This document shows positions 13,227-44,216 of a stretch of DNA of 64,000 nucleotides, piece after piece. Position 1 is the first letter of the stretch, and each line of letters opens with the position of its first letter. Where the stretch lies: contig CAYQQD010000001.1 of assembly GCA_964419575.1 (NCBI GenBank), positions 7,403-71,402 of the forward strand, written 5' to 3'. Origin of the DNA: an uncultured Dehalococcoidales bacterium (GTDB taxonomy: Bacteria; Chloroflexota; Dehalococcoidia; Dehalococcoidales; E44-bin46). The translations under genes were made by a program, and so were the position numbers. The notes beneath the pieces were generated by a model. That model ran no database searches. It worked only from the letters and a program-made list of their open reading frames with translations, and had not been told where the DNA came from.

Positions 13227-13664
13227 TTAATCCAACTTTTTAACCAACTCCTTTGCCGGTCCCAAAGCCCTGACTTCCTCGGTAATCTCTGTTATCAGCT
13301 CGGCAAACCTTTTCCCTTCGGCAGCAGATACCCAGGCGAAGTGGACTCGCCCTTTCTCAATACCCAGGTATTCAAGGAGATTATTCAGAATGGCAAACTT
13401 CCTCCTGGCAACATAATTACCACTGAGATAGTGGCAATCACCGGGGTGGCACCCTGAAACCAGGACGCCATCGGCGCCACGCTGCAGGCTTTTTAAGATT
13501 AGCAGCGGACTTATTCTACTTGAGCAGGGGACGCGGATAATCCGAGTATTGGGCGGGTATTGAAGTCGGCTTACCCCGGCTAAGTCAGCGCCAGCATAGC
13601 TACACCAATTACAGAGAAAGGCGATTATTTTGGGTTCCCACCCGTTTACTTTTTCCTCTTGCAT
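13227..13664 (-). CDS. mvhD: MvhD / FlxD-type hydrogenase-delta-like protein
   Basis: 145 aa. 'FLCNWCSYAGADLAG' and 'GCHPGDCHY' signature. Confidence 0.85.
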   Translation of the reverse strand: MQEEKVNGWEPKIIAFLCNWCSYAGADLAGVSRLQYPPNTRIIRVPCSSRISPLLILKSLQRGADGVLVSGCHPGDCHYLSGNYVARRKFAILNNLLEYLGIEKGRVHFAWVSAAEGKRFAELITEITEEVRALGPAKELVKKLD

Positions 13665-13707
13665 TTTCTATACCCGTTATCTTAATTCCCCAGCGCTTAT
13701 CACTGTC

Positions 13708-16700: not shown

Positions 16701-16743
16701 CTAGCACCGCTCCCGTTTTGCCATTTAAGCTAACTTTAGCCAA
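13708..16743 (-). CDS. hdrA: giant HdrA-like flavoprotein (two HdrA-type cores in one chain), copy 1
   Basis: 1011 aa. Two dinucleotide loops are present ('VIGGGIGGIQAALDLAESG' at the N-terminus and 'VIGGGIAGMVAALNLAEQG' near aa 600). It also carries 'FPTNDCSMCILSPK', two 'QCVGSR...YCS.VCC' motifs, 'VFVCHCGINI' and four CxxCxxCxxxC motifs. Confidence 0.85.
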   Translation of the reverse strand: MAKVSLNGKTGAVLVIGGGIGGIQAALDLAESGFYVYLAEQSPAVGGVMAQLDKTFPTNDCSMCILSPKLVECGRHLNISIMTNAEIKDIKGEAGNFQVTLAKKARYIDIDKCTGCGECAKHCPVRTTNSFDEGLSNRAAIYVKYPQAVPRAYAIDREKCIGCGLCDKLCLAKAVQYSDKEEIQTINVGSVILCPGYGLPEVALMLNYGYGKYPNVVTSIEFERMLSASGPYQGELLRPSDRDIPQKIAFIQCVGSRDLNQGKGYCSGVCCTYAIKEAIVAKEHSRLPLDTAIFFMDMRTFGKGFEAYYERAMSEHGVRFIRCRPSVIEEIPETKNLRIKYEAEDGKLIKEEFDLVVLSVGLEPSKGAEELASRLGIELNKYGFCKTDGFLPVETSKPGIFVCGAFQGPKDIPETVMQASATAASASASLSSVRNSLVKKKEYPPERDIRGEPPRIGVFVCHCGINIAGVVNVPEVKEYAASLPNVVYAEANLYTCSQDTQERIKEKIRQHSLNRVVVVSCTPRTHEPLFQETIRQAGLNRYLFEMANIRDQCSWVHKDYPEEATGKAKELVKMAVAKARLIHPVAQTPLEVIHRGLVIGGGIAGMVAALNLAEQGFEVYLVERGEKLGGIARRIRHTLEGDDIQAYLQDLITRVCESPLIQVYTNANIVEATGYVGNFTTRIEVGANRDTHELKHGVVIIATGGEEYKPSEYFYGEDARVMTLLELEEEVATGNGRIAGCDNAVIIQCVGSRQTDRPYCSRVCCSESIKCALKLKEAKPKMNIYVLYRDIRTYGFKEDYYREAREKGVIFIRYDTDDKPRVETVTEDNQNRLRVTMRDPILGEDLVIDTDILALAVAAIPAADNKKLSQLFKVPLNEDGFLLEAHMKLRPVEFATEGVFMCGLAHSPKFIEETIAQAKAAASRAGTILSKDVIEVGGLVSLVDESKCSGCGVCALICPFQAVDIDADKKVAKVNEALCKGCGACVSSCICGAMNMKGFSNAQILALINAS
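15542..15797. repeat. 256-bp tract identical to 19356-19611 (inside hdrA copy 1)
   Basis: Base-by-base comparison of the two paralogues shows a constant offset of 3814 bp with no mismatch over 256 bp. Flanks are clearly diverged. Confidence 0.9.
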
Positions 16744-16757
16744 CTCTGTTTGACCGC

Positions 16758-17519
16758 CTATTTCTTGATGTATTTAGGTGTCCTGTGCTCAAGGGTGTGA
16801 AGGTGCACCTCCCCCGTCTGCTCAAGGTCGACCAGATATGAGGAAATAAGCTTTGGGTCAAGGCTGGTAGCTTGAGCTATCTCTCTAACCGACATCGCCT
16901 GTTGTTGTAAAAGGATAGCTATCCAGCTCTTAATATATTCGTCACGAATTGCGGTATCCAAAAGCGACTCAAATTTATCTGGAGATATCTTCTCGCCAAA
17001 CACATTTCCCTTCTCTACTAGACCAATCTCATTACCCACCAGCCAGCGTACTTTTTCCGTCTGTAAGGTAGCTCTAACCGCCCGGAGACGCTGGCGTAAG
17101 GGTTCATCGGTGCCGTCGGCTTTAAGCGGACCGATAGCTCTGACTTTATTGATGAATGAGGTAACGATGTCAACAAACCTCTGCCCCTCAGCGGCTGATA
17201 CCCAGTCAAGGCGAAGCCTTTCCGGATGAACCCCGGCAATATCCAGGAGTCTTTTAGTCATTTTCATCTTTTTCTCTGCGTAGTAGTTACCAGTGCCATA
17301 GTGGCAATCACCAAAGTGGCAACCTAAAACCAGAACCCCGTCCAAACCGGCGAGAAAGGCGGTAATAATAAACACCGGGTCAACCCGGCCTGAGCACATA
17401 GTCCTAATATTCACCACATTAGCCGGGTATTGGAATCGGGATATGCCAGCCAAATCAGCGCCAGCATAAGAACACCAGTTACACAAGAAAGATAGTATTC
17501 TAGGCTCGAAATTTGACAT
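16758..17519 (-). CDS. mvhD: MvhD-like domain fused to a ~120-aa C-terminal extension ending in a winged-helix-like segment
   Basis: 253 aa. N-terminal 'FLCNWCSYAGADLAG' and 'GCHFGDCHY'. The C-terminus 'MSVREIAQATSLDPKLISSYLVDLEQTGEVHLH' looks like a wHTH recognition unit. Confidence 0.75.
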   Translation of the reverse strand: MSNFEPRILSFLCNWCSYAGADLAGISRFQYPANVVNIRTMCSGRVDPVFIITAFLAGLDGVLVLGCHFGDCHYGTGNYYAEKKMKMTKRLLDIAGVHPERLRLDWVSAAEGQRFVDIVTSFINKVRAIGPLKADGTDEPLRQRLRAVRATLQTEKVRWLVGNEIGLVEKGNVFGEKISPDKFESLLDTAIRDEYIKSWIAILLQQQAMSVREIAQATSLDPKLISSYLVDLEQTGEVHLHTLEHRTPKYIKK

Positions 17520-17527
17520 TTTCCCCT

Positions 17528-20500
17528 TTATGCCACTGCCAAGGCATTAATCTGGGCTATTAGCTCGTCATCGGTAAAGTGCCCCATGGTTATTGCCTGC
17601 TGCGGGCAACTAGCGGCACACAAACCACAACCGGTACACAGTGCCGCAATCGTCTCAGCCTTATTGACTCCGTTCACCGGCTTCAGCCGGATAGCCTCAA
17701 AGGCACAAACTGACTCACACAGCCCGCAGCCAATGCATTTTTCGGCATCAACAGAGGACACGATGCCCTCTACTGTGACATAGCCTTTGGATAATGGAAT
17801 TGAGGCTCGCCCGGCAGCCCCCATAGCTTGAGAAATTGATTCGTCTATCATCTGGGGAGAGTGAGCTATGCCGCACAGGAAAATACCTCGGGTGCTTGAA
17901 TCCGCCGGTCTAAGCTTCACATGGGCTTCCATCAAGAAACCATCCTCATTAACCGGAGTCTTCAGCAGCCTAGCTAGCTCATCAACTTTATTGGGGATGA
18001 TGCCGCTACTCAGTGCCACTAAGTCACAATCGATGGCTACTTTTTCACCCAGCATTAGCTCCAATACCGCTACATTGAGTTTGCCATTCTTTGAGGCAAC
18101 TTCTGGCTTATGGCTATCGTCATATCGGATAAACGTTACACCTTCAGCCCTTGCCGTGGTATAAAACTCCTCCCTAAACCCATAGGTCCTTACATCTTTA
18201 TACAGGACATATATATTTGCCGATGGATTTATTTCTTTTATCTTTAGGGCATTTTTGATAGCCTGGCTACAGCATACCCGGCTGCAATACGGTCTTTCCT
18301 GGTTACGGGAACCAACACACTGAATCATTACTACATCGTTTACAGCCTTCTCTTCCAAGGTATGTGTCGCCAGTTTGTGTTCTAATTCCTTCTGGGTTAC
18401 CACATTAGGGTGTTCCCCATACAGATATTCTTTCGGCTTATATTCTTGGCCGCCGGTGGCGACGATAATAACCCCGTGCTCCAAAGTCTCCTCTGCTTCT
18501 GACCTTCTTACCGTAGTCCTAAAATTGCCAATATAGCCGGTAATGTCTTTAATCTCAGCATTGAGATAAACCTCGATTAACCTGTGATGGTGCACCCTGT
18601 CTATGGTCTCTTTCAGAAGCTGCTGAACATCTTTCCCGTCCAAAGTCCAGTAAATATCCCGCAGGTTACCTCCAAGCTTATCGCTTTTCTCAACCAGAAA
18701 GCACATGAATCCTTGCTCAGCTAGCTTCAGGGCTGCTGTCATCCCAGCTATCCCTCCGCCGATAACCAGAGCCTTATTGACCACGCTCACACTGAGTTCA
18801 GTTAATGGCTGGATAAGCCTGGCTTTGGCTACCGCCATTTTAACTAATTCCTTAGCTTTCTCGGTAGCCAGCTCCGGTTGCCCTTTATGCACCCAGGAGC
18901 ACTGGTCTCGGATATTAGCCATCTCAAAGAGGTATTTGTTTAGCCCTCCCTGTCTAATGGTTTCCTGGAATAAGGGCTCGTGAGTTCGGGGGCTGCAAGC
19001 CGCCACGACCACTCGATTAAGGTCATGCTCCTTAATCCTCTCCTTTATCAGCTCTTGGGTGTCTTGAGAGCAGGCATAAAGATTAGCCTCAGCATAGACC
19101 ACGTCGGGGAGGCTAGCAGCATATTCCTTTACCCCGGGGACATCGACCACCCCACCAATATTGACGCCGCAATGGCAGACAAAAACTCCTATCCTCGGTG
19201 GCTCTCCTATTATATCCCTTTCTGGGGGATACTCCTTTTTCTTTATCAGGCTATTGCGGGCAGGGGAGAGTAGGGCGGCGGCTAAAGCAGTGGCAGCACT
19301 GGCTTGAGTTACTGTTTCCGGGATATCTTTTGGTCCGCTAAAGGCGCCACTGACAAATATACCTGGCTTAGAGGTCTCAACAGGCAAGAAACCATCAGTT
19401 TTACAGAACCCATATTTATTGAGTTCGATTCCCAGTCTACTAGCTAGCTCCTCAGCCCCTTTAGATGGCTCAAGCCCAACCGAGAGGACAACCAGGTCAA
19501 ATTCCTCCTTTATCAGCTTACCGTCCTCAGCCTCATACTTTATCCTCAGATTTTTTGTCTCTGGTATCTCCTCAATTACCGAGGGTCTACACCTGATAAA
19601 CCTGACCCCGTATTCATTCATTGCCCGCTCATAGTAGGCTTCAAAGCCTTTGCCAAAGGTCCGCATATCCATAAAGAAGATGGCGGTGTCTAGCGGGATA
19701 GGGCTGTGTTCCTTAGCCACTATTGCTTCTTTAATAGCATAAGGGCAACAGACTGAGGAGCAATAACTACTCTGTGGAGATTCCCCTCGTGAGCCAACAC
19801 ATTGTATCCAAGCAATCTTTTGGGCTTGTTGCCTGTCCGAAGGTCTTAGTAACTCACCTTGATACGGTCCAGAGGCACTTAGAATTCTTTCAAACTCAAT
19901 ACTGGTGACGACATTAGGGTATCTGCCATACCCATACTGCGGAACAAGGCTAGCTTCAAACTTGTTAAAGCCGGGACACAGGATGATTGACCCTACCTGT
20001 AGCTCAATAGTCTGATCGGTTTGGTTGAAATCGACAGCCTTAACCGAGCAGAACTTCTCGCAAGCTCGGCATTTACCCGTTTTAAAGTAAACACAAAGCT
20101 CCTTATCAATAACCGGCACATTGGGTATTGCCTGAGCATAAGGGATGTAGATGGCTTTTCTCTTGCCCAAGCCTTGGTCGAACTCGCTATCCGTTTTCCA
20201 CGGGCACTTCGTTTGGCAGATGCCACATCCGGTACACAGAGATTCGTTTACATACCTAGCTCGCTTGTTAACCCTGACCTTAAAGCTGCCCGGTTTCCCG
20301 CTAACATCCAAGATGTCGGCATAGGTTATGATGTCAACATTTAAATTCCGGCCACATTCCACCAGTTTTGGGGAGAGGATACATATGGAGCAGTCATTGG
20401 TGGGGAAGGTCTTGTCAAGTTGAGCCATCACCCCACCAATAGCCGGCGATTGCTCAACCAAATAGACATAGTACCCAGACTCGGCTAGGTCCAGGGCTGC

Positions 20501-20584
20501 CTGAATACCGCCAATACCCCCACCGACAACCAGTACCGCCCCGGTTTTATGGTTGACAGTCGGCTGGGCACTTGACTTCGCCAT
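17528..20584 (-). CDS. hdrA: giant HdrA-like flavoprotein, copy 2
   Basis: 1018 aa, collinear with copy 1. Same motifs: 'VVGGGIGGIQAALDLAESG', 'VIGGGIAGMTAALKLAEQG', 'FPTNDCSICILSPK', 'VFVCHCGVNI'. Confidence 0.85.
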   Translation of the reverse strand: MAKSSAQPTVNHKTGAVLVVGGGIGGIQAALDLAESGYYVYLVEQSPAIGGVMAQLDKTFPTNDCSICILSPKLVECGRNLNVDIITYADILDVSGKPGSFKVRVNKRARYVNESLCTGCGICQTKCPWKTDSEFDQGLGKRKAIYIPYAQAIPNVPVIDKELCVYFKTGKCRACEKFCSVKAVDFNQTDQTIELQVGSIILCPGFNKFEASLVPQYGYGRYPNVVTSIEFERILSASGPYQGELLRPSDRQQAQKIAWIQCVGSRGESPQSSYCSSVCCPYAIKEAIVAKEHSPIPLDTAIFFMDMRTFGKGFEAYYERAMNEYGVRFIRCRPSVIEEIPETKNLRIKYEAEDGKLIKEEFDLVVLSVGLEPSKGAEELASRLGIELNKYGFCKTDGFLPVETSKPGIFVSGAFSGPKDIPETVTQASAATALAAALLSPARNSLIKKKEYPPERDIIGEPPRIGVFVCHCGVNIGGVVDVPGVKEYAASLPDVVYAEANLYACSQDTQELIKERIKEHDLNRVVVAACSPRTHEPLFQETIRQGGLNKYLFEMANIRDQCSWVHKGQPELATEKAKELVKMAVAKARLIQPLTELSVSVVNKALVIGGGIAGMTAALKLAEQGFMCFLVEKSDKLGGNLRDIYWTLDGKDVQQLLKETIDRVHHHRLIEVYLNAEIKDITGYIGNFRTTVRRSEAEETLEHGVIIVATGGQEYKPKEYLYGEHPNVVTQKELEHKLATHTLEEKAVNDVVMIQCVGSRNQERPYCSRVCCSQAIKNALKIKEINPSANIYVLYKDVRTYGFREEFYTTARAEGVTFIRYDDSHKPEVASKNGKLNVAVLELMLGEKVAIDCDLVALSSGIIPNKVDELARLLKTPVNEDGFLMEAHVKLRPADSSTRGIFLCGIAHSPQMIDESISQAMGAAGRASIPLSKGYVTVEGIVSSVDAEKCIGCGLCESVCAFEAIRLKPVNGVNKAETIAALCTGCGLCAASCPQQAITMGHFTDDELIAQINALAVA
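19356..19611. repeat. 256-bp tract identical to 15542-15797 (inside hdrA copy 2)
   Basis: See the partner repeat. The shadow ORFs 15605-15820 and 19419-19634 give almost the same 71-aa translation. Confidence 0.9.
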
Positions 20585-33394: not shown

Positions 33395-34177
33395 GTGGCA
33401 CAAAAGTTCAGTCCAGCGGGAGAAAAGGATATAAGTAGTGCTATAGTCGCTGAGTTTGCCGCTCAGTTTCAAGAATATGTAGAGAGCGACTGTATTATCG
33501 TCGGTGGTGGTCCAAGTGGACTCATGGCAGGTAGGAATTTGGCAAGAGCGGGCAAGAGGGTTCTTATTGTCGAACGGAATAACTATATTGGGGGTGGCTT
33601 CTGGATTGGGGGGTTCCTGATGAACACGGTAACCGTAAGACATCCGGGAGAGAGGATTTTAGATGAGCTCGGTATTCCGTACAAGGCGGTTAATAAGAAT
33701 CTGTGGGGGGCGAACGGTCCGCATGCCTGTTCAAAGCTTATTGCTTCAACCTGCGATGCCGGCGTTAAATTCCTCAATATGGCAAACTTCGACGACCTAG
33801 TATTAAGAGGAGATAATCGTGTTGCCGGAGTTGTGGTTAACTGGACACCTGTCTCAGCATTACCAAGAGAGATAACCTGCGTTGACCCCATTGCCTTGGA
33901 GTCGAGAGTGGTTATCGACGCTACTGGTCATGATGCTCAGGTAGTGAGGAAATTGGAGGAGAGGGGGCTAATCAAAACCAAGGGTTATGGTGCTATGTGG
34001 GTAGAGAGGTCGGAAGACCTAGTCGTTGAGCATACAGGAGAGGTTCACCCGGGGTTGATTGTCACCGGCATGGCGGTATCAACAACCTACGGATTGCCTC
34101 GGATGGGCCCAACTTTTGGGGCTATGCTCTTATCGGGGGAAGTGGCGGCTGAGATTGCCCTAGAGAGTTTGAGATGA
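33395..34177 (+). CDS. thi4: Thi4-type thiazole synthase, His variant (non-suicidal type)
   Basis: 260 aa. '[13 protein letters not shown]' and '[11 protein letters not shown]', with His at the position of the yeast sulfur-donor Cys. Confidence 0.85.
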
Positions 34178-34974
34178 AAGTTCGCCGAATAGAGAAGGTC
34201 CTCTTGTACGATGAAGGTGCGGCTGAAGAATTAAATACAGAGGAAATCGCCAAATATTTGAAAGAGAAGCTAGGGAAAGCACAAGTCAAGGTGAGAGGGA
34301 ATCCCTTTGCTCTTTGGCTTGAGAAAAGCTCAGATTATGCAAGAAAGCTTGCATCTATCAAGATTCAAGATGTGAATAGACAGATAGCCCCTGAGCAGGA
34401 ACCTCTCTATGGCGAGGTTTCGTATGAAGAAAGAAGAATTCTGGGAAAAACCAAGTCCTTTGGAGTGCTCTACGACGGTTTTCAACTTCAAAGGGTCTTT
34501 TCAGAACTCATAGCACGGGAGGAGTGCTCTCTTGAGGTTGTTCACATCTTCTTTACCAACCGTTTGTTTGCTACCTGGGAGGAGAATAACAACCGGTACC
34601 ATGCCAGGACAAGCATGTATGGTATCCCCTCGGTTATCTCAACTACAGGGCTGGTAGAGGCACCGGCCAAGCCAAGGGAGTATTACCTTCTTAAGCAGCA
34701 GTATGAGATGCTAGGAAAGGACCTGTTGGAACTCAAAGAGAGATTGAAGGGAAGTTTTATTGATTACGGGGATGAACGACTGACCGAGGTTATAAAGGGA
34801 TATGCAATGCAGGCGGTTTTCTATCATCTTGTTGGTGACCCTTTTTGCGAGGATAAGGGTTGTCGGCTATATAACGCCCACTGGCAAGAGGAACTCATCT
34901 TTGCCCAGCTTGAGAGCGAATACGAGTTTTGTGAACGCCATACCAGAATCTTAGATAATTTACGTAGGAAATGA
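34174..34974 (+). CDS. hypothetical protein. The C-terminal Cys/His motif resembles a degenerate archaemetzincin-like zinc site.
   Basis: 266 aa. '[20 protein letters not shown]...FCERH'. ATGA overlaps link it to both thi4 and the ThiS-like gene. Confidence 0.6.
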
Positions 34975-35165: not shown

Positions 35166-35208
35166 GGGAGGCACAACCAATTAAGGTCTTGGTGAAGGAG
35201 GTAGTTTG

Positions 35209-36402
35209 ATGAAGCTATATCAGATGGTCGTAAAAGACATTATACGCCGCAAAAGGCGGGTGTTATTTGCCATCATCGGTGTAATTATCGGCACTATGAC
35301 GGTCGTTGGCATATTTACCATTGCCCGCGCTGGTGAAGCAAGAATGTATGAGCAGCTGGAAAAATATGGCCCTAACTTAACCGTCATACCAGCCATAACT
35401 AACGTTGATGTGAATTTAGGTGGCGACCTGAGTCTTGGGACTTTGTCAGTCGGCGAAAACTGCATCCCCGAGGAAAAATTGCCTGAGATCAGAAGGATAA
35501 CCGATAACGCAATAAGGGAGGCGCTGGGCATTGAAGATGAGGGCAATATTGCCATCATTGCCCCCAAACTCTACGTGAATACCGAGGTGAAAGGGGTATC
35601 GGTGATGGTAGTTGGGGTGGAGCCTCAAGAGGAGAGCAAGATTAAGACATGGTGGAGAATTCGGGAGGGGGAATATCTTGAGCGTGCCGACCAGGCGCTG
35701 ATCGGAGCGGTAGCTGCTGAACTTCTGGAGCTTAGCGAAGGTGATACCATTGCTCTTAACGGCACCGATGTAACCATTACCGGTATTCTCGAGGAGACAG
35801 GTTCCAACGAAGATTACCAGATTTTTGTTCCCCTAGCCACATTGCAGAGGGCGTTTAACAAAGAGGGGCTGATTTCTTCAATGGATATTCGTGCCCTGTG
35901 CAATGCATGCCCGGTGGTAATGATCGCTGACAGTATAAATAGTGAGATTCCCGGGGTTCGGGCAATTGCGGTAAAACAAATAGCTAGCGCTGAAATGGAG
36001 ATGCTGGGGAGAATAAACAGGTTTATGCTGGCTCTGGCCGGAATTACACTGGCTGTTGGCTTGTTTGGGGTAGGCAACACGATGATGCGGTCGGTAAATG
36101 AAAGGATCAAAGACATCGGGATAATGAGAGCAGTAGGGGCGTCACACAATCAGATAATGAGGGTCTTTCTTTACGAGGCTATTATTATTGGTGTATTGGG
36201 GGGTATCTTCGGGTATTGGGCAGGAACCTTGCTGGCATTTGGGCTTGGCCCGGTGCTCTTTCAGATATCAGCCATTAGTTACGTACCCCAGTACTTCCCC
36301 CTAGCACTGGGCTTAGCTATCTCTGTTGCCGTCATAGCCACCATATATCCAGCCTTTCGCGCCACCAGGGTTAAGGTGGCTGATTCCTTTAGGTCTTTGT
36401 GA
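35209..36402 (+). CDS. FtsX/MacB-type ABC transporter permease
   Basis: One N-terminal TM, a ~230-aa extracytoplasmic domain and three C-terminal TMs. GGAGG lies 7 nt before the ATG at 35209. Confidence 0.85.
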   Translation: MKLYQMVVKDIIRRKRRVLFAIIGVIIGTMTVVGIFTIARAGEARMYEQLEKYGPNLTVIPAITNVDVNLGGDLSLGTLSVGENCIPEEKLPEIRRITDNAIREALGIEDEGNIAIIAPKLYVNTEVKGVSVMVVGVEPQEESKIKTWWRIREGEYLERADQALIGAVAAELLELSEGDTIALNGTDVTITGILEETGSNEDYQIFVPLATLQRAFNKEGLISSMDIRALCNACPVVMIADSINSEIPGVRAIAVKQIASAEMEMLGRINRFMLALAGITLAVGLFGVGNTMMRSVNERIKDIGIMRAVGASHNQIMRVFLYEAIIIGVLGGIFGYWAGTLLAFGLGPVLFQISAISYVPQYFPLALGLAISVAVIATIYPAFRATRVKVADSFRSL

Positions 36403-36413
36403 GGTGGGACAAG

Positions 36414-37097
36414 ATGTTAGAAATCAAGAATGTAACCAAGATTTACGGCGAGGGTGAAACTAAAGTAGTTGCCCTTAATAATGTTTCGCTTCGGGTAGAA
36501 AAAGGCGACTTTATAGCTGTTATGGGGCCTTCTGGAAGCGGTAAGTCCACCCTTTTGAATGTCATCGGTGGTCTGGACCGCCTGTCCAGCGGTGAAGTGC
36601 TCCTGGAGGGGAAGCGTATCGATAACCTAGATGAAAATGCTCTTGTTGAGATTAGAAGGGGGAAAATCGCCTACGTTTTTCAGCAGTATCATCTGATTCC
36701 ATCCCTTACTGCCTTGGAGAATGTGCTCCTGCCTTTAATCTTTGCTGAGACAAGTGGGAAGGCTGAGAGGGCACTGAATATTTTGAAAAGGGTGGGCTTA
36801 GAAAAAAGGGCGAAACATAAACCCAGCCAGTTAAGTGGTGGGGAACAACAGAGGGTAGCCATTGCTAGAGCTCTGGTTAATAACCCGTTACTTGTCCTGG
36901 CTGATGAGCCAACAGGTAATATGGACCAAGAAACGGGTCAGAAAATCTTGCATTTATTCGACCAGCTAAATAGAGAGGGGCACAGCATTATTATGGTTAC
37001 CCATAACCCTGAGATAGCCAAATATGCTGGAGAAATTATAGTCCTGCGTGATGGGCAAGTTATAGATAGGATTAATCAAAGAGGAGGAAACCAATAA
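36414..37097 (+). CDS. ABC transporter ATP-binding protein (MacB/LolD-type)
   Basis: '[12 protein letters not shown]', Walker A 'GPSGSGKST', '[15 protein letters not shown]', 'LADEPTGN'. GAGGTG lies 7 nt before the ATG at 36414. Confidence 0.9.
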
Positions 37098-37655
37098 ATG
37101 TTAAAGAGAATCATTGCCTGGTTTATGTTATTACCGCTGGTTGTGATGTTGCTTCTAGGCGCTTGTGCTGGCCCAACGTCAACACCAGCACCGGAGTCGA
37201 CTCCAACACCAGCGCCGACACTGGAACCGACACTACCACCAGCACCAATGCTGACATTGGAACCACCAGCACCGGCAGCCTTCCAGATTACCGATTTAGA
37301 AATCAATCCGACAGTGGCTAGCCCTGGACAGAGGGTAACTATCAGCGCTAAGTTGACAAATACTGGTGACACTGGGGATAGCTACACAATGGAACTGTTT
37401 ATAAATGATGTTGCTGAGGTAGCAGAGGTAGCAAAGGAAGTAACTATACCTTCTGGTCAAACCAGGGAGTTGCGTTTCTCAGAGTTTTTCAAGACACCGG
37501 GTACTTATCGAGTTAACTTGGGTGAGCTTATCGGACAATTTGTGATAGTTGAGTCAGGCGAGCTAACACAATCAAGTACCCCCGGCTGCTGCTCCGGTGC
37601 GCCTGATTCCAGTACCTCGGATAGTTCTAGTTGCAGGTGTTGTTCACGCCGTTAG
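37098..37655 (+). CDS. lipoprotein with a Pro/Thr-rich linker, a CARDB-like Ig domain and a Cys-rich C-terminal tail
   Basis: 185 aa. Lipobox 'LLGAC'. 'ASPGQRVTISAKLTNTGDTGDSYTMELFIND' is CARDB-like. The tail reads 'PGCCSGAPDSSTSDSSSCRCCSRR'. Confidence 0.7.
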   Translation: MLKRIIAWFMLLPLVVMLLLGACAGPTSTPAPESTPTPAPTLEPTLPPAPMLTLEPPAPAAFQITDLEINPTVASPGQRVTISAKLTNTGDTGDSYTMELFINDVAEVAEVAKEVTIPSGQTRELRFSEFFKTPGTYRVNLGELIGQFVIVESGELTQSSTPGCCSGAPDSSTSDSSSCRCCSRR

Positions 37656-37727
37656 GAGTTATTCGAGCTTTTCTCCCACTGTGCCTGCTTCCACTACTCT
37701 ATTTACACACAAAGGAGGATACAATAG

Positions 37728-38303
37728 ATGTTAAGAAAAATAGGAATAGGAGCCTTGGTAGTTTCGCTAGTATTAATCCTTGCCGGGTGTGCTGGCTCAC
37801 CACCAGCATCGGCACCTACTCCGCCGCCGGCACCAGTACCTACGTCACCGCCATCACCAGCCCCTACTCCGCCACCAAGTCCAAAGCCATCGGGGCCAAT
37901 AGAGGCGACATGGATTGAGCCACAACTAGATGGCGATACTGTGTCCATCCCAGTAAGTGAGATTGAGGACAATTGGAATACCCACTTTAAGCTGAGGACA
38001 AGGGTTGATGATAAGAGTGTCAGGCTGAATTTCATGGCATACATACTTGATGGAGAAATCTACGTTCGGGCGAACGTTTGCCCCCCTTGTCGCTCGGTAG
38101 GCTATGCTCTTGAAAATGACATCCTAATATGCGATACGTGTGCGACTACCTTCAATGCCAAAACCGGCGACGGTATTGGGGGAGCCTGTGTTGATTATCC
38201 CAAGGCAGTCGTGCCATATGAAATCACTAATAACCAATTAGTAATGAATGGAGCCGACCTAATAACTGCCTACGAGGACACCCTTAACCCCGGCTGGCCC
38301 TAA
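37728..38303 (+). CDS. lipoprotein with a Pro-rich linker and a Cys4 domain (DUF2318-like)
   Basis: 191 aa. Lipobox 'LAGC', and 'VCPPCRSVGY...ICDTCATTF' with two CxxC pairs. Confidence 0.65.
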   Translation: MLRKIGIGALVVSLVLILAGCAGSPPASAPTPPPAPVPTSPPSPAPTPPPSPKPSGPIEATWIEPQLDGDTVSIPVSEIEDNWNTHFKLRTRVDDKSVRLNFMAYILDGEIYVRANVCPPCRSVGYALENDILICDTCATTFNAKTGDGIGGACVDYPKAVVPYEITNNQLVMNGADLITAYEDTLNPGWP

Positions 38304-38320: not shown

Positions 38321-40357
38321 TTGTCAGTGCAAAGAGGCTTTTATTTTGACCAGACTAGATGTATCGGGTGCTTCACCTGTTGTGTAGCCTGTAAGGATTG
38401 GCATGATATACCTGCCGGGCCAGCCCACTGGCGGAGGGTAGCCCCGTTTGAAGACAGTAAATTTCCTCGGCCTTTCCTGGCCTACCTTTCCGCTGCCTGC
38501 TACCATTGTGAGAACCCTCTCTGCGCCGTAGTTTGTCCTGCCGAAGCGATAACCAGAAGGGAAGACGGCATAGTCGTAGTGGACAGGGAAAAGTGTCAGG
38601 AGAGCGCTCGTTGTGGTATTACCCTCACCAATGGCAGTGGCCAGATAAATGTGTCTGCCTGTGAGGTAACCTGTCCCGCTCATGTTGATGTACCAGGCTA
38701 CATCGCTCTAATTAGTAAAGGTAAGTTTAAGGAAGCGCTAGACTTAATGCGAGAGAAACTACCTTTACCTGGCGTTTTGGGCAGGGTGTGCTCTCACCCT
38801 TGTGAAAGTGAGTGCAAAAGGGGTGAAGTTGATAAACCTCTGGCTATCAGAGACCTCAAGCGATTCGCCTATGATGCGGTAGCTGATGAAAAGCCTGTCC
38901 CTCTGCCTAGGACAAAAGAGCAAAGTGTAGCCATTATCGGCTCAGGGCCAGCAGGACTTTCTGTAGCCTACGACCTGATAAGAAAAGGCTATAAGGTTAC
39001 AATCTTTGAAGCACTTCCTGTCATAGGGGGCATGGTGGTGGTGGGTATTCCTCGTTACCGACTGCCCACAGAGGTCTTGAACCGGGACATTGAGTACCTT
39101 AAAGGTCTGGGGATAGAAATTAAGGCCAATACACCTATTGGTAAGGAGACGACTTTGGATGACCTATCCCGCCAAGGTTACGACGCCATCTTCATCGCAG
39201 TGGGGGCTCATAATGGGCGTAAGCTCCCTATTCCTGGCGCTGAAGCTGATAATGTATTAGTGGGTACCTCATTCTTGCGCGATGTAAACCTGGGCAATAA
39301 CATCAAGCTGGGTCAGAGAGTGCTAGTGCTTGGTGGCGGTGGTATAGCCATTGATTGTGCTCGTGTTGCTCTTCGCCTAGGTGCGCAAAAAGTAGAAGCT
39401 GCCTGCCTGGAGTCCCGGGAGCAGATGCCAGCCTTAGACTCTGATATCGCTGAAGCTGAGAGGGAAGGGATAATCATTCACCCCTCGCGTACCTTTAAAC
39501 AAGTTGTGTGTCAGGATGGATGTGCTACTGGAGTAGAGTGCCTTAAATTGCGCTGGATGGAGTTTGATAAGGATGGGAAGCTGCACATAGACCCCATCGA
39601 AGGGTCAGAGCATGTCTTATCTGCAGATACGATTATATTCGCCATTGGTCAATCTCCAGACCTCGATACCCTCTTGGCAGGCACTGACATCGAGGTAACC
39701 AAACGCGGCACCATCGCTGTGGACCCTGAAACTCTACAAACCAGCCGCCCTGGAGTTTTTGCTGGGGGAGACGCAGTTACAGGAACGGCTTGGGTTATCG
39801 ACGCTATTGCCGCTGGGCAAAGGGCGGCATTTTACATTGACCACTATCTAAGGGGGGAAGTCCTGGGGAAGGGTTACATAGATATTCTCATAAAGGCCTC
39901 AGATATTAAAGTTGAGATACCGACTGACCTAGTTAAAGAACCGCGGCAGGAGATGCCGACTCTTGCCGTAGAGCAAAGGGAGGACAATTTTGGTGAGATT
40001 GCACTGGGATACGATGGGGAGAAAGCCATCACCGAAGCCAAGAGGTGCATGAACTGTGCCGGCAGGCTCTGCCTTAGGGTGTGTCCTTATGCTGCCCCTC
40101 AGTTTGGGGCTGAAAATAGAGCTAAAATGGAGAAATGTGACTTTTGTGTGGACAGGCTGGAAGAGGGCAAAAACCCCATCTGTGTAGATGCCTGTATTAT
40201 GCGAGCCTTAGACTGGGGCTCGATGGAAAGCCTAAAGGCAAAATATGGAGATATTCAAGAGGCTATCGGTTTTGCGTATTCATCAAGCGCCAAGCCTTCC
40301 ATCATATTTAAGCCGAAACGTCTGCCAGACAAAGCAGCTTCATCGGAGGGAAAATGA
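38321..40357 (+). CDS. DmsB-like four-cluster ferredoxin interrupted by a GltD-like NAD(P)H:FAD oxidoreductase module
   Basis: 678 aa. The N-terminus has 'FYFDQTRCIGCFTCCVACKDW' and 'CYHCENPLCAVVCP'. Residues ~93-575 carry 'GRVCSHPCESECKR' and 'AIIGSGPAGLSVAYDL'. The C-terminus has 'CMNCAGRLCLRVCPYAAPQF' and 'CDFCVDRLEEGKNPICVDAC'. Confidence 0.8.
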   Translation: MSVQRGFYFDQTRCIGCFTCCVACKDWHDIPAGPAHWRRVAPFEDSKFPRPFLAYLSAACYHCENPLCAVVCPAEAITRREDGIVVVDREKCQESARCGITLTNGSGQINVSACEVTCPAHVDVPGYIALISKGKFKEALDLMREKLPLPGVLGRVCSHPCESECKRGEVDKPLAIRDLKRFAYDAVADEKPVPLPRTKEQSVAIIGSGPAGLSVAYDLIRKGYKVTIFEALPVIGGMVVVGIPRYRLPTEVLNRDIEYLKGLGIEIKANTPIGKETTLDDLSRQGYDAIFIAVGAHNGRKLPIPGAEADNVLVGTSFLRDVNLGNNIKLGQRVLVLGGGGIAIDCARVALRLGAQKVEAACLESREQMPALDSDIAEAEREGIIIHPSRTFKQVVCQDGCATGVECLKLRWMEFDKDGKLHIDPIEGSEHVLSADTIIFAIGQSPDLDTLLAGTDIEVTKRGTIAVDPETLQTSRPGVFAGGDAVTGTAWVIDAIAAGQRAAFYIDHYLRGEVLGKGYIDILIKASDIKVEIPTDLVKEPRQEMPTLAVEQREDNFGEIALGYDGEKAITEAKRCMNCAGRLCLRVCPYAAPQFGAENRAKMEKCDFCVDRLEEGKNPICVDACIMRALDWGSMESLKAKYGDIQEAIGFAYSSSAKPSIIFKPKRLPDKAASSEGK

Positions 40358-42627
40358 GCCAAAACAGCTACCAAACGAAAACAGATGAAAAAATTGTCTA
40401 TACTGCGTGTAATAGCCACTGCGGCGGAGCATGCCTTCTTAAAGTCCACATTAAAGATGGAGTAGTTACTAGGATCGAAACCGATGATGGGGAAGAGCCT
40501 CAATTCCGTGCCTGTCTAAAATGCCGCTCTTACCGTCAGCGGTTATATGCCTCAGATCGCCTCAAGTATCCTATGAGGAGGGTTGGAGCTAGAGGTGAAG
40601 GTAAGTTTGAACCGATCTCTTGGGACGAAGCGTTTTCCACTGTAGCCAAGGAATTAATACGGGTGAGAGATACCTATGGGCCAGGAGCTATTATCTACTT
40701 CTGTTCACTGGCTGATATTCATGTTCTGCATACTATGACACCGATGCACAGACTACTCTGCATGGCGGGGGGTTATACTCCACTTTGGGGTTATTTCTCG
40801 TACGAGGGTGGCGTCTTTGCTGAATGCGCTACCTATGGAACGCATATGGCTAACAGTACCAGGGATGACCTTCTTAACTCCCGGCTGATAATAATGTGGG
40901 GGTGGGACCCGGCAGTTTCAATCCACCGCTGCAACACCCCATACTATATAGCCCAGGCTAAGGAAGCGGGTGCCAGAATCGTTGCCATAGACCCAAGGTA
41001 TACAGATTCCGCAGCCACTTTCGCTGATGAATGGATACCTATTTACCCCGGCACTGATGCCGCCATGCTTATTGCCATGGCTTATGTCATTATTACGGCA
41101 AACCTCCAGGACCAAGCATTCCTCGATAAATATACTGTAGGTTTTGAGAAATTTAGCGACCATGTATTAGGCATTGAAGATGGTATACCAAAGACACCCG
41201 CCTGGGCAGAGGCCATTACTGGCGTAAAGGCAGCTACCATCGAGGGGTTAGCCAGAGAATACGCCACCACTAAGCCAGCAGCTTTGATTACTGGCATCGC
41301 CCCGGGGCGCACTGCCTATGGTGAGCAATATCACCGTGCTGCTATTACTTTATCGGCTATGACCGGCAATATAGGTCTCAGCGGGGGAAGCTCTGCCGGC
41401 AGGGCATGGGGTGGTGAGTACTGGGGTGGGGAGATGCCTTTCTTAGCCCACATCAAGGGTCGGATGCGGTCTCCGAAAAATCCGGTTGAAAAGGGATGGC
41501 CAGCGCGCCGGGATACCATTAAGGCGCGTGGTCCTAACACAAATAGCAGTGTGAAAATAAACGTTGGTCAGATAGCCGATGCCATATTAAGGGGCAAGGC
41601 TGGTGGCTATCCAGCTGATTACAAGCTTCTCTACTTGGCAAACACTAACTATATTAACCAGGTTCTAAATACCAACAAGGCGATAGAAGCTTTTAAGGCT
41701 CTGGAGTTTATTGTTGTCCAGGAGCAATTTATGACAGTTACTGCCAAGTACGCCGATATATTGCTCCCAGTCAATACCTATTTTGAAAGAAATGACTTTA
41801 CCAGCGGTGGGGCTACTCCTTGGTATGGCCTGGTAAACAAGTGTGTTGAGCCTCTTTATGAATCTAAGTCTCACCTTGAAATAGCCAGCGGAATAGCCAA
41901 GGCAATGGGTATTGATGATTATAATGATAAGACGGAAGAGGAATGGCTAAAGGGTATAGTAGAAGGATATAGAGAGGTCTTTGCCCAAGACAAAGAAGGT
42001 CCCGATTACCAAGCACTTAAGCAGAAGGCGTTATATAAATTCCCAACCGATGGGCCCTATGTTGCGTTTAAGAACCAGATTGAAGACTTGGGCAATCACC
42101 CTTTCCCCACTCCTTCAGGTAAAATTGAAATATTCTCGCAAGAGCTAGCTGATTGGCATAACCCTCAGCTACCACCCATTCCCAAGTACATTGAGACCTG
42201 GGAGGGGCGAAATGACCCTCTGGTGAAGAAGTATCCATTACAGCTGGTTACTACCCATTCTCGTAGACGGGCGCACAGTCAGTTCGACAATATACCTTGG
42301 CTTAGAGAGTTGATTACGCAGAGTGTGCAGATAAATACCGAAGATGCCCGGGCTAGAGGCATCAGCAACGGCGACTTAGTGCGAGTCTTTAATGACCGAG
42401 GACAAACGGTTCTCCCGGCTGAGGTAACACAAAGGATAATGCCCGGTGTAGTGAACATTCCGCAGGGTGCTTGGTATGACCCCGATGAAAATGGGATAGA
42501 ACGTGGCGGCTGCGTCAATGTGCTGACCAAGGATGCCAAATCACCCGGTGGTGCATTTTGCACCAATACTACTTTGGTCGAGGTTGAAAAGTGGGGGGAG
42601 GGTGATAGGGCAGCCAGTTTACTTTAA
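40354..42627 (+). CDS. molybdopterin oxidoreductase, DmsA-like catalytic subunit without a TAT signal
   Basis: 757 aa. FS0 motif 'CNSHCGGACLLKVHIKDGVVTRIETDD' (C-x3-C-x3-C as in DmsA). The N-terminus 'MSQNSYQTKTDEK' has no twin arginine. 4-nt overlap with the upstream gene. Confidence 0.85.
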   Translation: MSQNSYQTKTDEKIVYTACNSHCGGACLLKVHIKDGVVTRIETDDGEEPQFRACLKCRSYRQRLYASDRLKYPMRRVGARGEGKFEPISWDEAFSTVAKELIRVRDTYGPGAIIYFCSLADIHVLHTMTPMHRLLCMAGGYTPLWGYFSYEGGVFAECATYGTHMANSTRDDLLNSRLIIMWGWDPAVSIHRCNTPYYIAQAKEAGARIVAIDPRYTDSAATFADEWIPIYPGTDAAMLIAMAYVIITANLQDQAFLDKYTVGFEKFSDHVLGIEDGIPKTPAWAEAITGVKAATIEGLAREYATTKPAALITGIAPGRTAYGEQYHRAAITLSAMTGNIGLSGGSSAGRAWGGEYWGGEMPFLAHIKGRMRSPKNPVEKGWPARRDTIKARGPNTNSSVKINVGQIADAILRGKAGGYPADYKLLYLANTNYINQVLNTNKAIEAFKALEFIVVQEQFMTVTAKYADILLPVNTYFERNDFTSGGATPWYGLVNKCVEPLYESKSHLEIASGIAKAMGIDDYNDKTEEEWLKGIVEGYREVFAQDKEGPDYQALKQKALYKFPTDGPYVAFKNQIEDLGNHPFPTPSGKIEIFSQELADWHNPQLPPIPKYIETWEGRNDPLVKKYPLQLVTTHSRRRAHSQFDNIPWLRELITQSVQINTEDARARGISNGDLVRVFNDRGQTVLPAEVTQRIMPGVVNIPQGAWYDPDENGIERGGCVNVLTKDAKSPGGAFCTNTTLVEVEKWGEGDRAASLL

Positions 42628-42648
42628 TAAAGGGTGCGACATTTACAA

Positions 42649-43122
42649 ATGAGCAAGATAATTGCAGTCTGTAAGAGCAAGAAAAAAGGTACTAGGAAGA
42701 AACCTGTAGCCAAAGGTGTCATCAAAGAAGGTTACGGTCTTGTCGGTGATGCTCACGCCGATTGCTGTACTCATCGTCAGGTAAGCCTGCTGGCAACTGA
42801 AAGTATTGACAAAATGCGCAAGTTAGGCGTGGATGTAGGCCCTGGAGATTTTGCTGAAAATCTCACTACCGAAGGAATAGACTTGCTCTCGTTACCGATT
42901 GGCACACATATATTTGTAGGAGGAGAGATTGTCTTAGAAATTACCCAGATTGGTAAAGACTGCCATACTACCGGATGTGCTATTTACCGTCAAATGGGCA
43001 AATGCATTATGCCCAAAGAGGGAGTATTTACCAAGGTAATCAAGGGAGGACTGGTTAAAGTGGGGGACGCGATAAGAGTCTGGGAGAAGGCAACAATCAA
43101 CAAAAGAGGAAAGGAAGGTTAA
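42649..43122 (+). CDS. MOSC domain protein
   Basis: 'GLVGDAHAD...HRQVSLL...GDFAENLTTEGIDL...' MOSC layout. The ATG at 42649 is preferred over the GTG at 42634. Confidence 0.75.
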   Translation: MSKIIAVCKSKKKGTRKKPVAKGVIKEGYGLVGDAHADCCTHRQVSLLATESIDKMRKLGVDVGPGDFAENLTTEGIDLLSLPIGTHIFVGGEIVLEITQIGKDCHTTGCAIYRQMGKCIMPKEGVFTKVIKGGLVKVGDAIRVWEKATINKRGKEG

Positions 43123-43123
43123 T

Positions 43124-43222
43124 ATGGATAAGCGACGACGTCGCATTCTATATACTTTACTTGGGATTGGTATCGCGGCACTTTGCGTTGGCCTAGTCCT
43201 CCTATTTACGTATTCAGGCTGA
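43124..43222 (+). CDS. 32-codon small membrane protein (not in the ORF track)
   Basis: My own translation is 'MDKRRRRILYTLLGIGIAALCVGLVLLFTYSG'. GGAAGG lies 6-7 nt upstream, and the ORF fills the gap between MOSC and nadA. Confidence 0.45.
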   Translation: MDKRRRRILYTLLGIGIAALCVGLVLLFTYSG

Positions 43223-43247
43223 AGCTGGCCGGAAAGGAGGATTAACA

Positions 43248-44216
43248 ATGGGAAATAGGGATGCTGAACTAATTGAGAAAATTCTAAACCTTAAGAAAAG
43301 GAGGAACGCTGTTTTCCTCGCCCATAACTACCAATTGGGTGAGGTTCAGGATATAGCTGATTTTGTCGGTGATTCTTTAGAATTGAGTCAAAACGCAGCG
43401 AAGACAGACGCTGATGTAATTTTATTTTGTGGTGTTCATTTTATGGCAGAGACAGCCTCTATCCTTTGTCCGAATAAGATAATCTTGTTACCTGATATAA
43501 ATGCCGGCTGCCCTATGGCAGACATGGTAACTGCTGAAAGGCTAAAGGAGAGAAAACGGGAATTCCCAAATGCCACCGTGGTTTGCTATATCAACTCTTC
43601 GGCAGAGGTAAAGGCAGAGTCAGACGTTTGCTGCACCTCGGCCAATGCGGTCAAGGTTATAGAGAGCTTAGACAGAAAGGAAATACTATTTGTTCCCGAC
43701 CAGTACCTGGGTCATTATATTTCCACCAAGACTGGTAAAAAGATGATACTTTGGCCTGGCTTCTGCCCCACTCATCTAAGGATTCGGCCTGAAGACATTA
43801 CACGACTGAAACAGGAATATCCTCAGGCCAAGGTGGTGGTCCATCCTGAGTGCCGACCTGAGGTCATCAACCTTGCTGATGAAGTCTTGAGCACCGGGGG
43901 GATTTGCCGATATGCAAGGCAAGAAGATATCACCCAGATGATTGTGGGAACAGAAATAGGCATAATACACCGGCTCAGAAAAGAGAACCCGGGCAAGAGA
44001 TTCATTCCTGCCTCTGAACAGGCAATCTGCCCCAGAATGAAGCTAATCACCCTAGAAAAGATACTATGGTCTCTGGAGGAGATGACGCCTCAAGTAAAGG
44101 TTCCTGAAGGGATTCGTATCAAGGCAAAATTGGTTGTGGACAAGATGTTAGAAATAGGCAGGGCTGGTTCAGAGAAAGATGTATCTATTCTCCATGCCTG
44201 CCCGCGTCACCAGTAA
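43248..44216 (+). CDS. nadA: quinolinate synthase
   Basis: 322 aa. 'FLAHNYQLGEVQDIADFVGDS' and 'GVHFMAETA' with typical NadA length. Confidence 0.9.
   Translation: MGNRDAELIEKILNLKKRRNAVFLAHNYQLGEVQDIADFVGDSLELSQNAAKTDADVILFCGVHFMAETASILCPNKIILLPDINAGCPMADMVTAERLKERKREFPNATVVCYINSSAEVKAESDVCCTSANAVKVIESLDRKEILFVPDQYLGHYISTKTGKKMILWPGFCPTHLRIRPEDITRLKQEYPQAKVVVHPECRPEVINLADEVLSTGGICRYARQEDITQMIVGTEIGIIHRLRKENPGKRFIPASEQAICPRMKLITLEKILWSLEEMTPQVKVPEGIRIKAKLVVDKMLEIGRAGSEKDVSILHACPRHQ

Follow-up and report, generated by a model that had tools for sequence, protein, structure and literature searches.

How is a molybdoenzyme of the dimethyl sulfoxide (DMSO) reductase family supplied with electrons when neither an export signal nor a membrane anchor is encoded with it? 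The question is raised by positions 38321-43122 of the window, i.e., the whole stretch of 64,000 nucleotides from an uncultured Dehalococcoidales bacterium that was analysed. Three open reading frames (ORFs) lie there on one strand: 38321-40357 (678 residues, gene 1), 40354-42627 (757 residues, gene 2) and 42634-43122 (162 residues, a MOSC-domain gene). Genes 1 and 2 probably encode a soluble cytoplasmic alpha-beta Mo/W enzyme of the DmsA/DmsB lineage, which would exchange electrons with NAD(H) and not with a membrane quinol. In gene 1, a cassette of the GltD/NfnB type sits exactly between the second and the third cysteine of DmsB Cys group III, as seen when unsplit orthologues are compared with gene 1. 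Window numbering is used throughout, and residues of gene 1 are counted in the 678-residue frame (start TTG 38321). The features are as follows.

38321..40357, + strand: gene 1, a DmsB-type four-cluster ferredoxin with a GltD/NfnB-type cassette for flavin adenine dinucleotide (FAD) and NAD(H), the putative electron-input subunit (Pfam, NCBIfam, homologues, AlphaFold2)
38321..38620, + strand: DmsB N-terminal part, residues 1-100, with Cys group I (C14/17/20/24), group II (C60/63/68/72) and the first half of group III, C92-x5-C98-G-I (TIGR02951 profile 1-121)
38621..40066, + strand: inserted, permuted GltD/NfnB cassette, residues 101-582 (alignment to NfnB, NfnA and StnC); its parts are C114-x3-C118-P, C157/C161/E162/C165, GSGPAG 207-212 (FAD), GGGG 338-341 (NAD(H)), a linker (498-534) and, trailing it, an 'N-terminal leader' (535-582) with C576-x2-C579 at its end
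39332..39421, + strand: second Rossmann (pyridine-nucleotide) site of the cassette, residues 338-367, GGGGIAIDCAR...VEAACLESRE (alignment to NADPH-binding relatives)
40067..40357, + strand: DmsB C-terminal part, residues 583-678, with the second half of group III, C584-x3-C588-P, and group IV, C606/609/621/625 (Fer4_11 572-633)
40354..42627, + strand: gene 2, a DmsA-type catalytic subunit of 757 residues for Mo/W-bis-pyranopterin guanine dinucleotide (bisPGD), lacking a twin-arginine translocation (Tat) leader (TIGR02166, Pfam, neighbour-joining tree)
40408..40524, + strand: FS0 [4Fe-4S] motif of gene 2, C19-x3-C23-x3-C27...C54, plus C57 (sequence, clade alignment)
40798..40800, + strand: codon of Ser149, the predicted Mo/W ligand (alignment to 1eu1_A)
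42634..43122, + strand: MOSC-domain gene, for which ATG 42649 is the likelier start (PF03473, C-terminal half of PRK14499)

A cassette inserted within a cysteine motif

An earlier, sequence-only reading of the region had described a true insertion of a GltD-type module within the four-cluster subunit, as opposed to an end-to-end fusion. The domain scan and the collinear homologues bear this out. Pfam places Fer4 at residues 13-77, Fer4_20 (PF14691, 88 bits) at 109-189, Pyr_redox_2 (PF07992, 121 bits) at 202-497 and Fer4_11 at 572-633, i.e., Fe-S domains flank the flavin module on both sides. The NCBIfam DmsB model TIGR02951 matches in two pieces, the first joining residues 4-116 to profile positions 1-121 of 161; the pieces sum to 159 bits, under the cut-off of 214 bits, and the chain between them is broken by about 480 residues. 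The DmsB-like start, the later collinearity with E. coli DmsB (CHMACPYGAPQY...CDGCYDRVAEGKKPICVESC) and the motifs first quoted for the protein (GRVCSHPCESECKR, AIIGSGPAGLS, a second GGGG loop and CDFCVDRLEEGKNPICVDAC) are all in place.

The insertion point can be read directly from the unsplit members of the clade. Related loci (L001-L079) were taken from the best 80 of 558 relatives in a scan of one genome per GTDB species; their ORFs were called mechanically, and the taxonomy of metagenome-assembled genomes (MAGs) follows the submitters' labels. The unsplit DmsB proteins of L036-L079, which occur in the same lineages as the split form, share about 60% identity with the N-terminal half of gene 1 and about 55-65% with its C-terminal half. 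Their Cys group III reads C-x5-C-x2-C-x3-CP, e.g., CLGKDSCGLCLEACP, and in gene 1 the same motif reads C92-x5-C98-G-I, followed by residues 101-582 and then L-C584-x3-C588-P. All 23 cluster-ligand cysteines are invariant in 13 diverse homologues, among them the 16 of groups I-IV as well as C92, C98, C114, C118, C157, C161 and C165. Across 110 homologues, 19 ligand cysteines and E162 (110/110) are invariant, C14, C17 and C20 are conserved in at least 90%, and the same level of at least 90% holds for all 16 cysteines of the DmsB groups.

An AlphaFold2 model of gene 1, built with the 110 homologues, reached a predicted local distance difference test value of 88.7 and a predicted template-modelling (TM) score of 0.89. 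The model is confident except at the seams (residues 101-110 and 511-530, approximately), the loop 591-600 and the C-terminal tail, a pattern that would fit a domain inserted via two linkers. Foldseek confirmed the GltD lobe (TM about 0.8 to 4ylf_B and 5jca_L), and its alignments to 9n5u_A and 8oh5_C exceed 600 columns and reach the flanking Fe-S parts. An origin of gene 1 in an assembly error or frameshift that fused two separate genes, for DmsB and GltD, is ruled out for practical purposes by more than 120 collinear clusters, genomes of about 30 GTDB species, cysteines kept invariant across both seams and the confident single-chain model.

The cassette is not a plain copy of its stand-alone relatives. 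GltD-type models span residues 111-604 or so; the best of them, PRK12771 (NF009410, 'NAD(P)-binding protein'), scores 470.5 bits, under its cut-off of 516 bits, and joins residues 111-604 to profile positions 47-543 of 566. The first 27 or so profile positions of Fer4_20 are located behind the cassette core. The core, residues 113-513, aligns with residues 46-462 of stand-alone Thermotoga maritima NfnB (4ylf_B), and the segment behind it, about 550-590, aligns with NfnB residues 7-53 (E = 4e-7), which comprise the N-terminal leader plus C-x2-C-x4-C-x3-CP. Since the core matches NfnB 46-462 and the trailing segment matches NfnB 7-53, the cassette is, judged by these alignments, circularly permuted relative to stand-alone NfnB/GltD.

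The cassette opens at the third NfnB cysteine (C114-x3-C118-P) and closes at the second (C576-x2-C579). These boundaries therefore yield two full hybrid Cys motifs shared with the host: C92/C98 of the host with C114/C118 of the cassette, and C576/C579 of the cassette with C584/C588 of the host. The insert had been described as a complete GltD-type unit; a GltD-type FAD/nucleotide module is indeed there, but it is permuted and its Cys motifs are shared with the host. Studies of DPD, GltS and NfnB-type modules provide the basis for two [4Fe-4S] clusters per cassette, one of them with a non-Cys fourth ligand (PMC8097209). By this analogy, the cassette should hold two [4Fe-4S] clusters and the gene 1 subunit a total of six clusters and FAD. 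The exit cluster of the cassette and the entry cluster of the DmsB wire would share adjacent ligands, whichever Cys quartets ligate. In the FdnH and NarH structures, the first three cysteines of group III and the last of group II bind the distal wire cluster, which faces the membrane anchor. This wire order puts the cassette in the place where DmsC normally delivers electrons.

The best relatives of the cassette in the PDB are NfnA of NfnABC (9bov_A, 42% identity; 9n5u_A) and StnC (8oh5_C), and their alignments run through the trailing leader. Residues 112-580 align to 9bov_A 102-567 and residues 113-582 to 8oh5_C 103-568, with the trailing leader at 522-568. In a representative search, the cassette (profile positions of about 110-590) was found at variable positions in hundreds of proteins of 500-1500 residues. 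Examples of the permuted form are P0245, P0256, P0264, P0294, P0305 and P0308, in which Fer4_20 starts at profile position 28-30 or so. The partners differ widely (flavodoxin, the NuoF C-terminal cluster domain, a complete Fer4_11 domain, CCG-type Fer4_8/17, a Yip1 membrane domain), and in a protein of 510 residues there is little else besides the cassette. The permuted GltD cassette looks like a promiscuous electron-input module.

Catalytic partner, missing anchor and proposed electron path

Gene 2 encodes the catalytic partner. Its best family is TIGR02166 (dmsA_ynfE), with 674.9 bits under a cut-off of 777.7 and residues 4-746 matching profile positions 34-793. Such a sub-cut-off score is consistent with a sister clade. 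Pfam finds Molybdop_Fe4S4, Molybdopterin and Molydop_binding. In a neighbour-joining tree (727 columns), the complete Tat-less clade forms the sister group of E. coli DmsA/YnfE/YnfF, and TorA and BisC fall outside. Ser149 aligns with the Mo-ligand Ser147 of Rhodobacter sphaeroides DMSO reductase (1eu1_A), and the position is Ser in 62/62 aligned sequences, i.e., clade members and the E. coli references DmsA/YnfE/YnfF. Ser149 is thus the predicted Mo/W ligand; the phylogenetic placement and the identification of the metal ligand had both been proposed as checks on the first reading.

The same reading had called the catalytic subunit a cytoplasmic, Tat-less DmsA type with a C-x3-C-x3-C FS0 motif, which agrees with C19/C23/C27 and with the gene start. 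The Tat leader is absent from gene 2, no upstream extension of the ORF is possible and the TIGR02166 match begins at profile position 34. A twin-arginine leader was found in 0/56 DmsA genes of the clade, whether the partner DmsB is split or unsplit. C23, C27 and C54 are nearly invariant in the 62 aligned sequences, in the same pattern as in E. coli DmsA (CTVNCGSRC...RAC). Position 19 is more variable (C in 31, S in 19, T in 8), as is position 57 (C in 21, G in 38). S or T at position 19 is often paired with C57 (16 cases), and 8 sequences have a cysteine at neither position; a strict C19/C57 swap as an alternative FS0 ligand is therefore unsupported, and some members may have a three-Cys or Ser-ligated FS0. 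All of the top 120 homologues of gene 2 (59-90% identity) stem from MAGs or metagenomes, and their names are automatic throughout. P0228 (944 residues, 61% identity to gene 2), which includes Fer4_11/Fer4 domains, appears to be a single-chain DmsA-DmsB fusion.

The absence of a DmsC-like anchor was likewise upheld. A tblastn search with E. coli DmsC gave no match in the window and 79 related loci, and a hydrophobicity scan found no conserved polytopic neighbour; NrfD-type anchors were checked only by that scan. No complete split locus lacks a DmsA-like gene next to the split DmsB, and these loci span four or more phyla, i.e., the pairing is obligate. A usually precedes B; the window, L001 and L002 have the reverse order.

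As for the nucleotide, all solved NADPH-binding relatives (9bov_A, 9n5u_A, NfnI-L (5jca_L) and Azospirillum brasilense GltD) have Y-R-R after beta-2 of the second Rossmann fold. Gene 1 has C362-L363-E364 at this place, and E364 is found in 107/110 family members. An acidic residue at that position is a classical signature of NAD(H) binding. Because YRR is replaced by CLE and E364 is near-universal, gene 1 is predicted, with moderate confidence, to prefer NADH over NADPH. The enzyme had been called NAD(P)H-linked; the pyridine-nucleotide site is there, but NADPH is less expected as the donor.

Together, these features outline a possible mechanism. The flavin cassette would replace the quinol-oxidising DmsC anchor at the far end of the four-cluster DmsB wire. 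Host and cassette would each give half of two ferredoxin-type Cys motifs, and this interleaving would hold the exit cluster of the cassette beside the entry cluster of the wire. Electrons would pass from NADH to FAD, through two [4Fe-4S] clusters of the cassette and four of DmsB to FS0, and finally to the Ser-ligated Mo/W-bisPGD. The wiring first suggested, from pyridine nucleotide via FAD and an Fe-S chain to Mo/W-bisPGD, is plausible and supported by homology. Since the catalytic clade is sister to S-oxide, N-oxide and selenate reductases, the enzyme would most likely reduce a high-potential oxo-substrate, be it an S-oxide, an N-oxide or an oxyanion, outside respiration, either as an electron sink or in detoxification or repair.

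Locus, neighbours and distribution

The true start of gene 1 is likely GTG 38327, giving 676 residues, and not TTG 38321; an AGAGG ribosome-binding site lies 7 nt before the GTG, and homologues begin with MQxGFYF. The database entry P0001 is identical to the gene 1 product and has 676 residues. The ATG of gene 2 overlaps the gene 1 stop by 4 nt (ATGA), as had been pointed out, and is preceded by a GGAGG ribosome-binding site. Through this overlap, gene 2 would be translationally coupled to gene 1. The base composition of the region is unremarkable.

The MOSC gene had been counted as part of a self-contained unit. It does start 6 nt (GTG) or 21 nt (ATG) after the end of gene 2 on the same strand, and in the window it is probably co-transcribed with the gene pair; synteny speaks against the larger claim. 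As an integral third subunit or a dedicated maturation factor, the MOSC protein would have this proximity in its favour, together with its type (PF03473, matching the MOSC half of MoaC/MOSC fusions linked to molybdenum cofactor synthesis) and a distance of at most 2 kb from the B-A genes in three loci (the window, L001 and L002). Elsewhere, however, it is missing near the pair: an 8-kb neighbourhood without any MOSC gene is seen in each of the other 28 or so split loci. Its position in L001 and L002, the two closest relatives, is upstream of the pair, beside NadA (order MOSC-NadA-B-A, as opposed to B-A-MOSC-NadA in the window). MOSC directly precedes the quinolinate synthase gene nadA in all three (window 42634-44216; L001 495-1868; L002 6060-7436). 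As MOSC stays with NadA on the other side of B-A and is absent elsewhere, the conserved pair is MOSC-NadA, and B-A moves as a two-gene module. A role of MOSC as a component of the system is thus very improbable and largely refuted by synteny. More generally, when 809 neighbouring ORFs were clustered all-vs-all, nothing apart from A and B was conserved across lineages.

Further genes in the window were noted. Directly upstream (35206-38303, + strand) come a MacB/FtsX-type ABC permease and ATPase and then two genes for lipoprotein-like products, both with linkers rich in Pro/Thr/Ser; the first carries a CARDB domain (37098-37655) and the second an FtrD-like Cys-rich domain (37728-38303). This context is absent from L001 and L002. 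A DUF6775/DUF7001 'probable metallopeptidase' gene (34174-34974, + strand) shares 4 nt with the end of a Thi4-family gene (33395-34177). At 11222-20584 (- strand), two tandem pairs of a double HdrA-like flavoprotein of about 1010 residues and an MvhD/FlpD protein are followed by Fer4_8/Fer4_22 proteins. The HdrA-like genes (13708-16743 and 17528-20584) carry Pyr_redox_2 twice plus Fer4, and the MvhD/FlpD genes are at 13227-13664 and 16758-17519. This region looks like a soluble Hdr/Mvh-like electron-transfer gene cluster.

A search for the nested fusion in other genomes had been proposed, and it was productive. Gene 1 has homologues in more than 120 database clusters, with 53-100% identity over 98-100% of the length and the same Pfam set, named only "FAD-dependent oxidoreductase" and labelled Chloroflexota/Dehalococcoidia. 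Among the best 80 of the 558 relatives, about 30 loci carry the full nested protein, on contigs that include some of 0.3-4.6 Mb, and about 45 carry an uninterrupted DmsB of about 183-200 residues. Hosts of the nested protein are Dehalococcoidia (two at 87-91% identity), Desulfobacterales/"Deltaproteobacteria", one Hydrogenedentota MAG, one "Pseudomonadales" MAG and numerous Asgard archaea (Promethearchaeota, Hod-, Thor- and Odinarchaeota), whose contigs reach 470 kb. In a representative library at 50% identity, only 7-8 or so clusters match the family profile end to end. With so few end-to-end clusters and so many host phyla, the family is compact in sequence and widely distributed. It had been conceded that the fusion might turn out to be common and already assigned to a characterised enzyme: it is common in MAGs across phyla, but its names are generic and automatic.

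In a neighbour-joining tree of the insert-less DmsB core (189 columns), nearly all split forms make up one clade, which is consistent with one main insertion event. The exception, L027, pairs with L048, a locus that is truncated by the end of its contig. The DmsA tree has one all-split subclade with a "TSAFDCGGRC" FS0 variant (Asgard, deltaproteobacterial and some Dehalococcoidales loci) and a mostly unsplit subclade with the window, L001, L002, L025, L027 and L007 scattered inside. This pattern suggests that partners were swapped or recombination took place, and that genes moved between the bacterial and archaeal domains. On Asgard MAG contigs L003, L024 and L026, split and unsplit DmsAB pairs lie on opposite strands about 3 kb or less apart. 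In unsplit loci, a VOC/glyoxalase-family gene is often found between DmsB and DmsA (7 loci), and two tandem DmsA paralogues may follow one DmsB, e.g., L036 8001-13477, L039 2527-7956 and L063 8001-11838.

Known systems, rival readings and meaning

Compared to E. coli DmsABC and YnfEFGH, which are quinol-dependent S-/N-oxide and selenate reductases (type II DMSO-reductase family), the window system has TIGR02166 as its closest curated family and shares the Ser ligand of Mo, FS0, the four DmsB Cys groups and collinearity outside the insert. A Tat leader, a DmsC anchor and a nearby DmsD/TorD gene are all missing, and the system would therefore be cytoplasmic and not linked to quinol. It also differs by scores below the family cut-offs, a clade-specific group III (C-x5-C-x2-C-x3-CP) and the flavin cassette of about 480 residues inside DmsB.

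Similar cassettes are known from other hosts. StnC of StnABC (8oh5) and NfnA of NfnABC (9bov, 9n5u) carry the same cassette in mid-protein, core and trailing leader included, at 33-42% identity. In these proteins, a GltD/NfnL-like domain within a NuoG/Fdh-like protein takes electrons from NADPH and hands them, by way of a non-bifurcating FAD and two clusters, to the host chain (PMC10482914, PMC11829005). They differ by a NuoG-like host with an inactive pterin domain, a bifurcating three-subunit complex and a YRR site for NADPH, whereas the window has a DmsB host, an apparently active DmsA-type partner, CLE and no BfuBC/StnAB partners nearby. AegA, YgfT and YgfK also combine a DmsB/HybA-like poly-ferredoxin and a GltD-like module in one chain, and the GltD part of gene 1 matches NF009408 and TIGR03315. 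Such proteins have been reviewed as carriers of GltD-like electron-input modules (PMC8097209). In them the two parts are joined end to end, whereas the window cassette is permuted and interrupts a Cys motif; P0245, a relative fused end to end, has this same cassette. With stand-alone NfnB, GltD and SudA (NADPH, two clusters), gene 1 shares the fold, the FAD loop, the second Rossmann fold and the C-x3-C-E-x2-C motif, but its leader and C-x2-C lie behind the core, its first Cys pair comes from the host and CLE replaces YRR.

The overall logic has parallels as well. The NADPH-dependent formate dehydrogenase of Moorella, with its GltD-like beta subunit SfrB, leads electrons in the cytoplasm from NAD(P)H via flavin and Fe-S to Mo/W-bisPGD, and so do the NADH-dependent assimilatory nitrate reductases NasBC/NasCA and the NAD-dependent FdsABG. 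These enzymes differ in that they belong to Cys- or SeCys-ligated Nas/Fdh clades with other flavin modules or separate subunits, and none has a DmsA-type partner or a split DmsB. Two loci in Clostridia MAGs (L031 3442-9251 and L033 5332-11050) encode the same three functional parts separately, in an operon of a distant DmsA-like protein (about 30% identity only), a DmsB of 245 residues, an ankyrin-repeat protein and a stand-alone GltD of 474 residues, which is unpermuted and has a full Fer4_20 domain. The operon looks like an unfused counterpart, and the unusual bacterial ankyrin gene lies at its centre. The ORF of about 300 residues between DmsB and GltD was considered as NfnA and rejected, as it is the ankyrin-repeat protein.

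The architecture had been put forward as one not known to have been described. The nested GltD cassette has a precedent in StnC/NfnA, and the principle of a cytoplasmic chain from pyridine nucleotide via flavin and Fe-S to Mo-bisPGD is already known; in the literature searched, no description was found of a DmsB host, a DmsA-type partner, an insertion inside a Cys motif or the permutation. A literature search on cytoplasmic, soluble, NADH- or NADPH-dependent DMSO reductases gave zero matches. No named or characterised homologue of either subunit is among the database matches, which have automatic names only, and no curated model in the NCBIfam scan covers the whole gene 1 protein.

Several points weigh against the assignment as an NADH-driven reductase. 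All homologues of genes 1 and 2 are from MAGs or metagenomes, and the trees are neighbour-joining trees without support values. The predicted preference for NADH draws on a general Rossmann-fold rule and on comparison with NADPH binders, and not on a solved NADH-specific GltD homologue. The sequence does not constrain substrate or direction, and DmsA paralogues with unexpected substrates exist, e.g., with reported sulfate reduction (PMC13524816). Genes of coenzyme A (CoA)-ester metabolism recur near some loci and could point to an organic substrate. The enzyme might in that case run in the opposite direction, with the DmsA-like subunit oxidising or hydroxylating a low-potential or organic substrate (e.g., a CoA ester, an aromatic compound or sulfite) and the cassette reducing NAD+. 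This is rather unlikely. The DMSO-reductase superfamily does include Ser-ligated cytoplasmic hydroxylases and transhydroxylases, of which 4v4c_A and 4v4c_B are detectable relatives; genes for enoyl-CoA hydratase, CoA-transferase, thiolase, SDR and VOC proteins are found repeatedly in the vicinity of clade loci (crotonase in 11/31 split and 8/43 unsplit ones), and the tandem DmsA paralogues behind one DmsB suggest substrate diversification. However, the gene 2 clade is sister to the DmsA/YnfE/F reductases and not to the hydroxylase branches, and the CoA-gene signal comes largely from syntenic, closely related Asgard loci. The CoA genes are absent from the window, where genes for an ABC transporter, lipoproteins, NadA and a peptidase surround the pair. 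By general thermodynamics, moreover, C-H hydroxylation couples are mostly too positive for NAD+ reduction.

The cassette could also belong to a larger bifurcating, confurcating or ferredoxin-coupled complex, as in NfnSL or NfnABC/Stn. Its closest structural relatives all reside within bifurcating enzymes, R247, the equivalent of the flavin-N5 arginine, is kept in 108/110 members, and the unsplit DmsAB of the clade must use some soluble donor, possibly ferredoxin. Yet no HydBC/BfuBC-like or NfnA/PyrK-like gene is conserved beside split loci, the homologous FAD in StnC and NfnABC is explicitly non-bifurcating and the cassette has a single exit path into a linear wire. Given the missing partner genes and the non-bifurcating FAD of Stn, a bifurcating complex is unlikely, and a coupled complex of any of these kinds has a low probability. 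The soluble NAD(H)-linked reductase remains the preferred reading.

This reading changes the interpretation of the "DMSO reductase" genes of Dehalococcoidia and Asgard archaea. Papers on both groups mention these genes only generically, and metabolic reconstructions of these abundant subsurface lineages, marine Dehalococcoidia (e.g., PMC4959651, PMC7506110) and Asgard archaea, take them as evidence of anaerobic respiration. With no Tat leader, no anchor and a built-in NAD(H)/FAD input, such enzymes should conserve no proton-motive force. As the anchor-replacing design is widespread in those lineages, the "DMSO reductase" genes of subsurface Dehalococcoidia and Asgard archaea are probably not respiratory. 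A more far-reaching proposal is tentative and on balance doubtful: the whole Tat-less, anchor-less DmsAB clade, read as 'DMSO respiration' in these groups, would be non-respiratory, and its GltD-split members would be NADH-driven fermentative sinks that arose from one insertion and spread between bacteria and archaea, or else NAD+-reducing hydroxylases acting on unrecognised organic or sulfur substrates in sediments.

For enzymology, the locus would represent a compact system of two genes, with a soluble nucleotide module in place of the membrane anchor of a complex iron-sulfur molybdoenzyme, exactly at the entry cluster of the wire, and a natural example of domain insertion via interleaved ferredoxin motifs. 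The predictions are a preference for NADH over NADPH through E364, seven Fe-S clusters plus FAD, and activity that does not require MOSC. Biocatalysis could make use of the enzyme as a self-sufficient reductase of sulfoxides or oxyanions that is driven by NADH. In Dehalococcoidia and Asgard archaea, such enzymes would be soluble electron sinks, detoxification or repair enzymes, or dehydrogenases.

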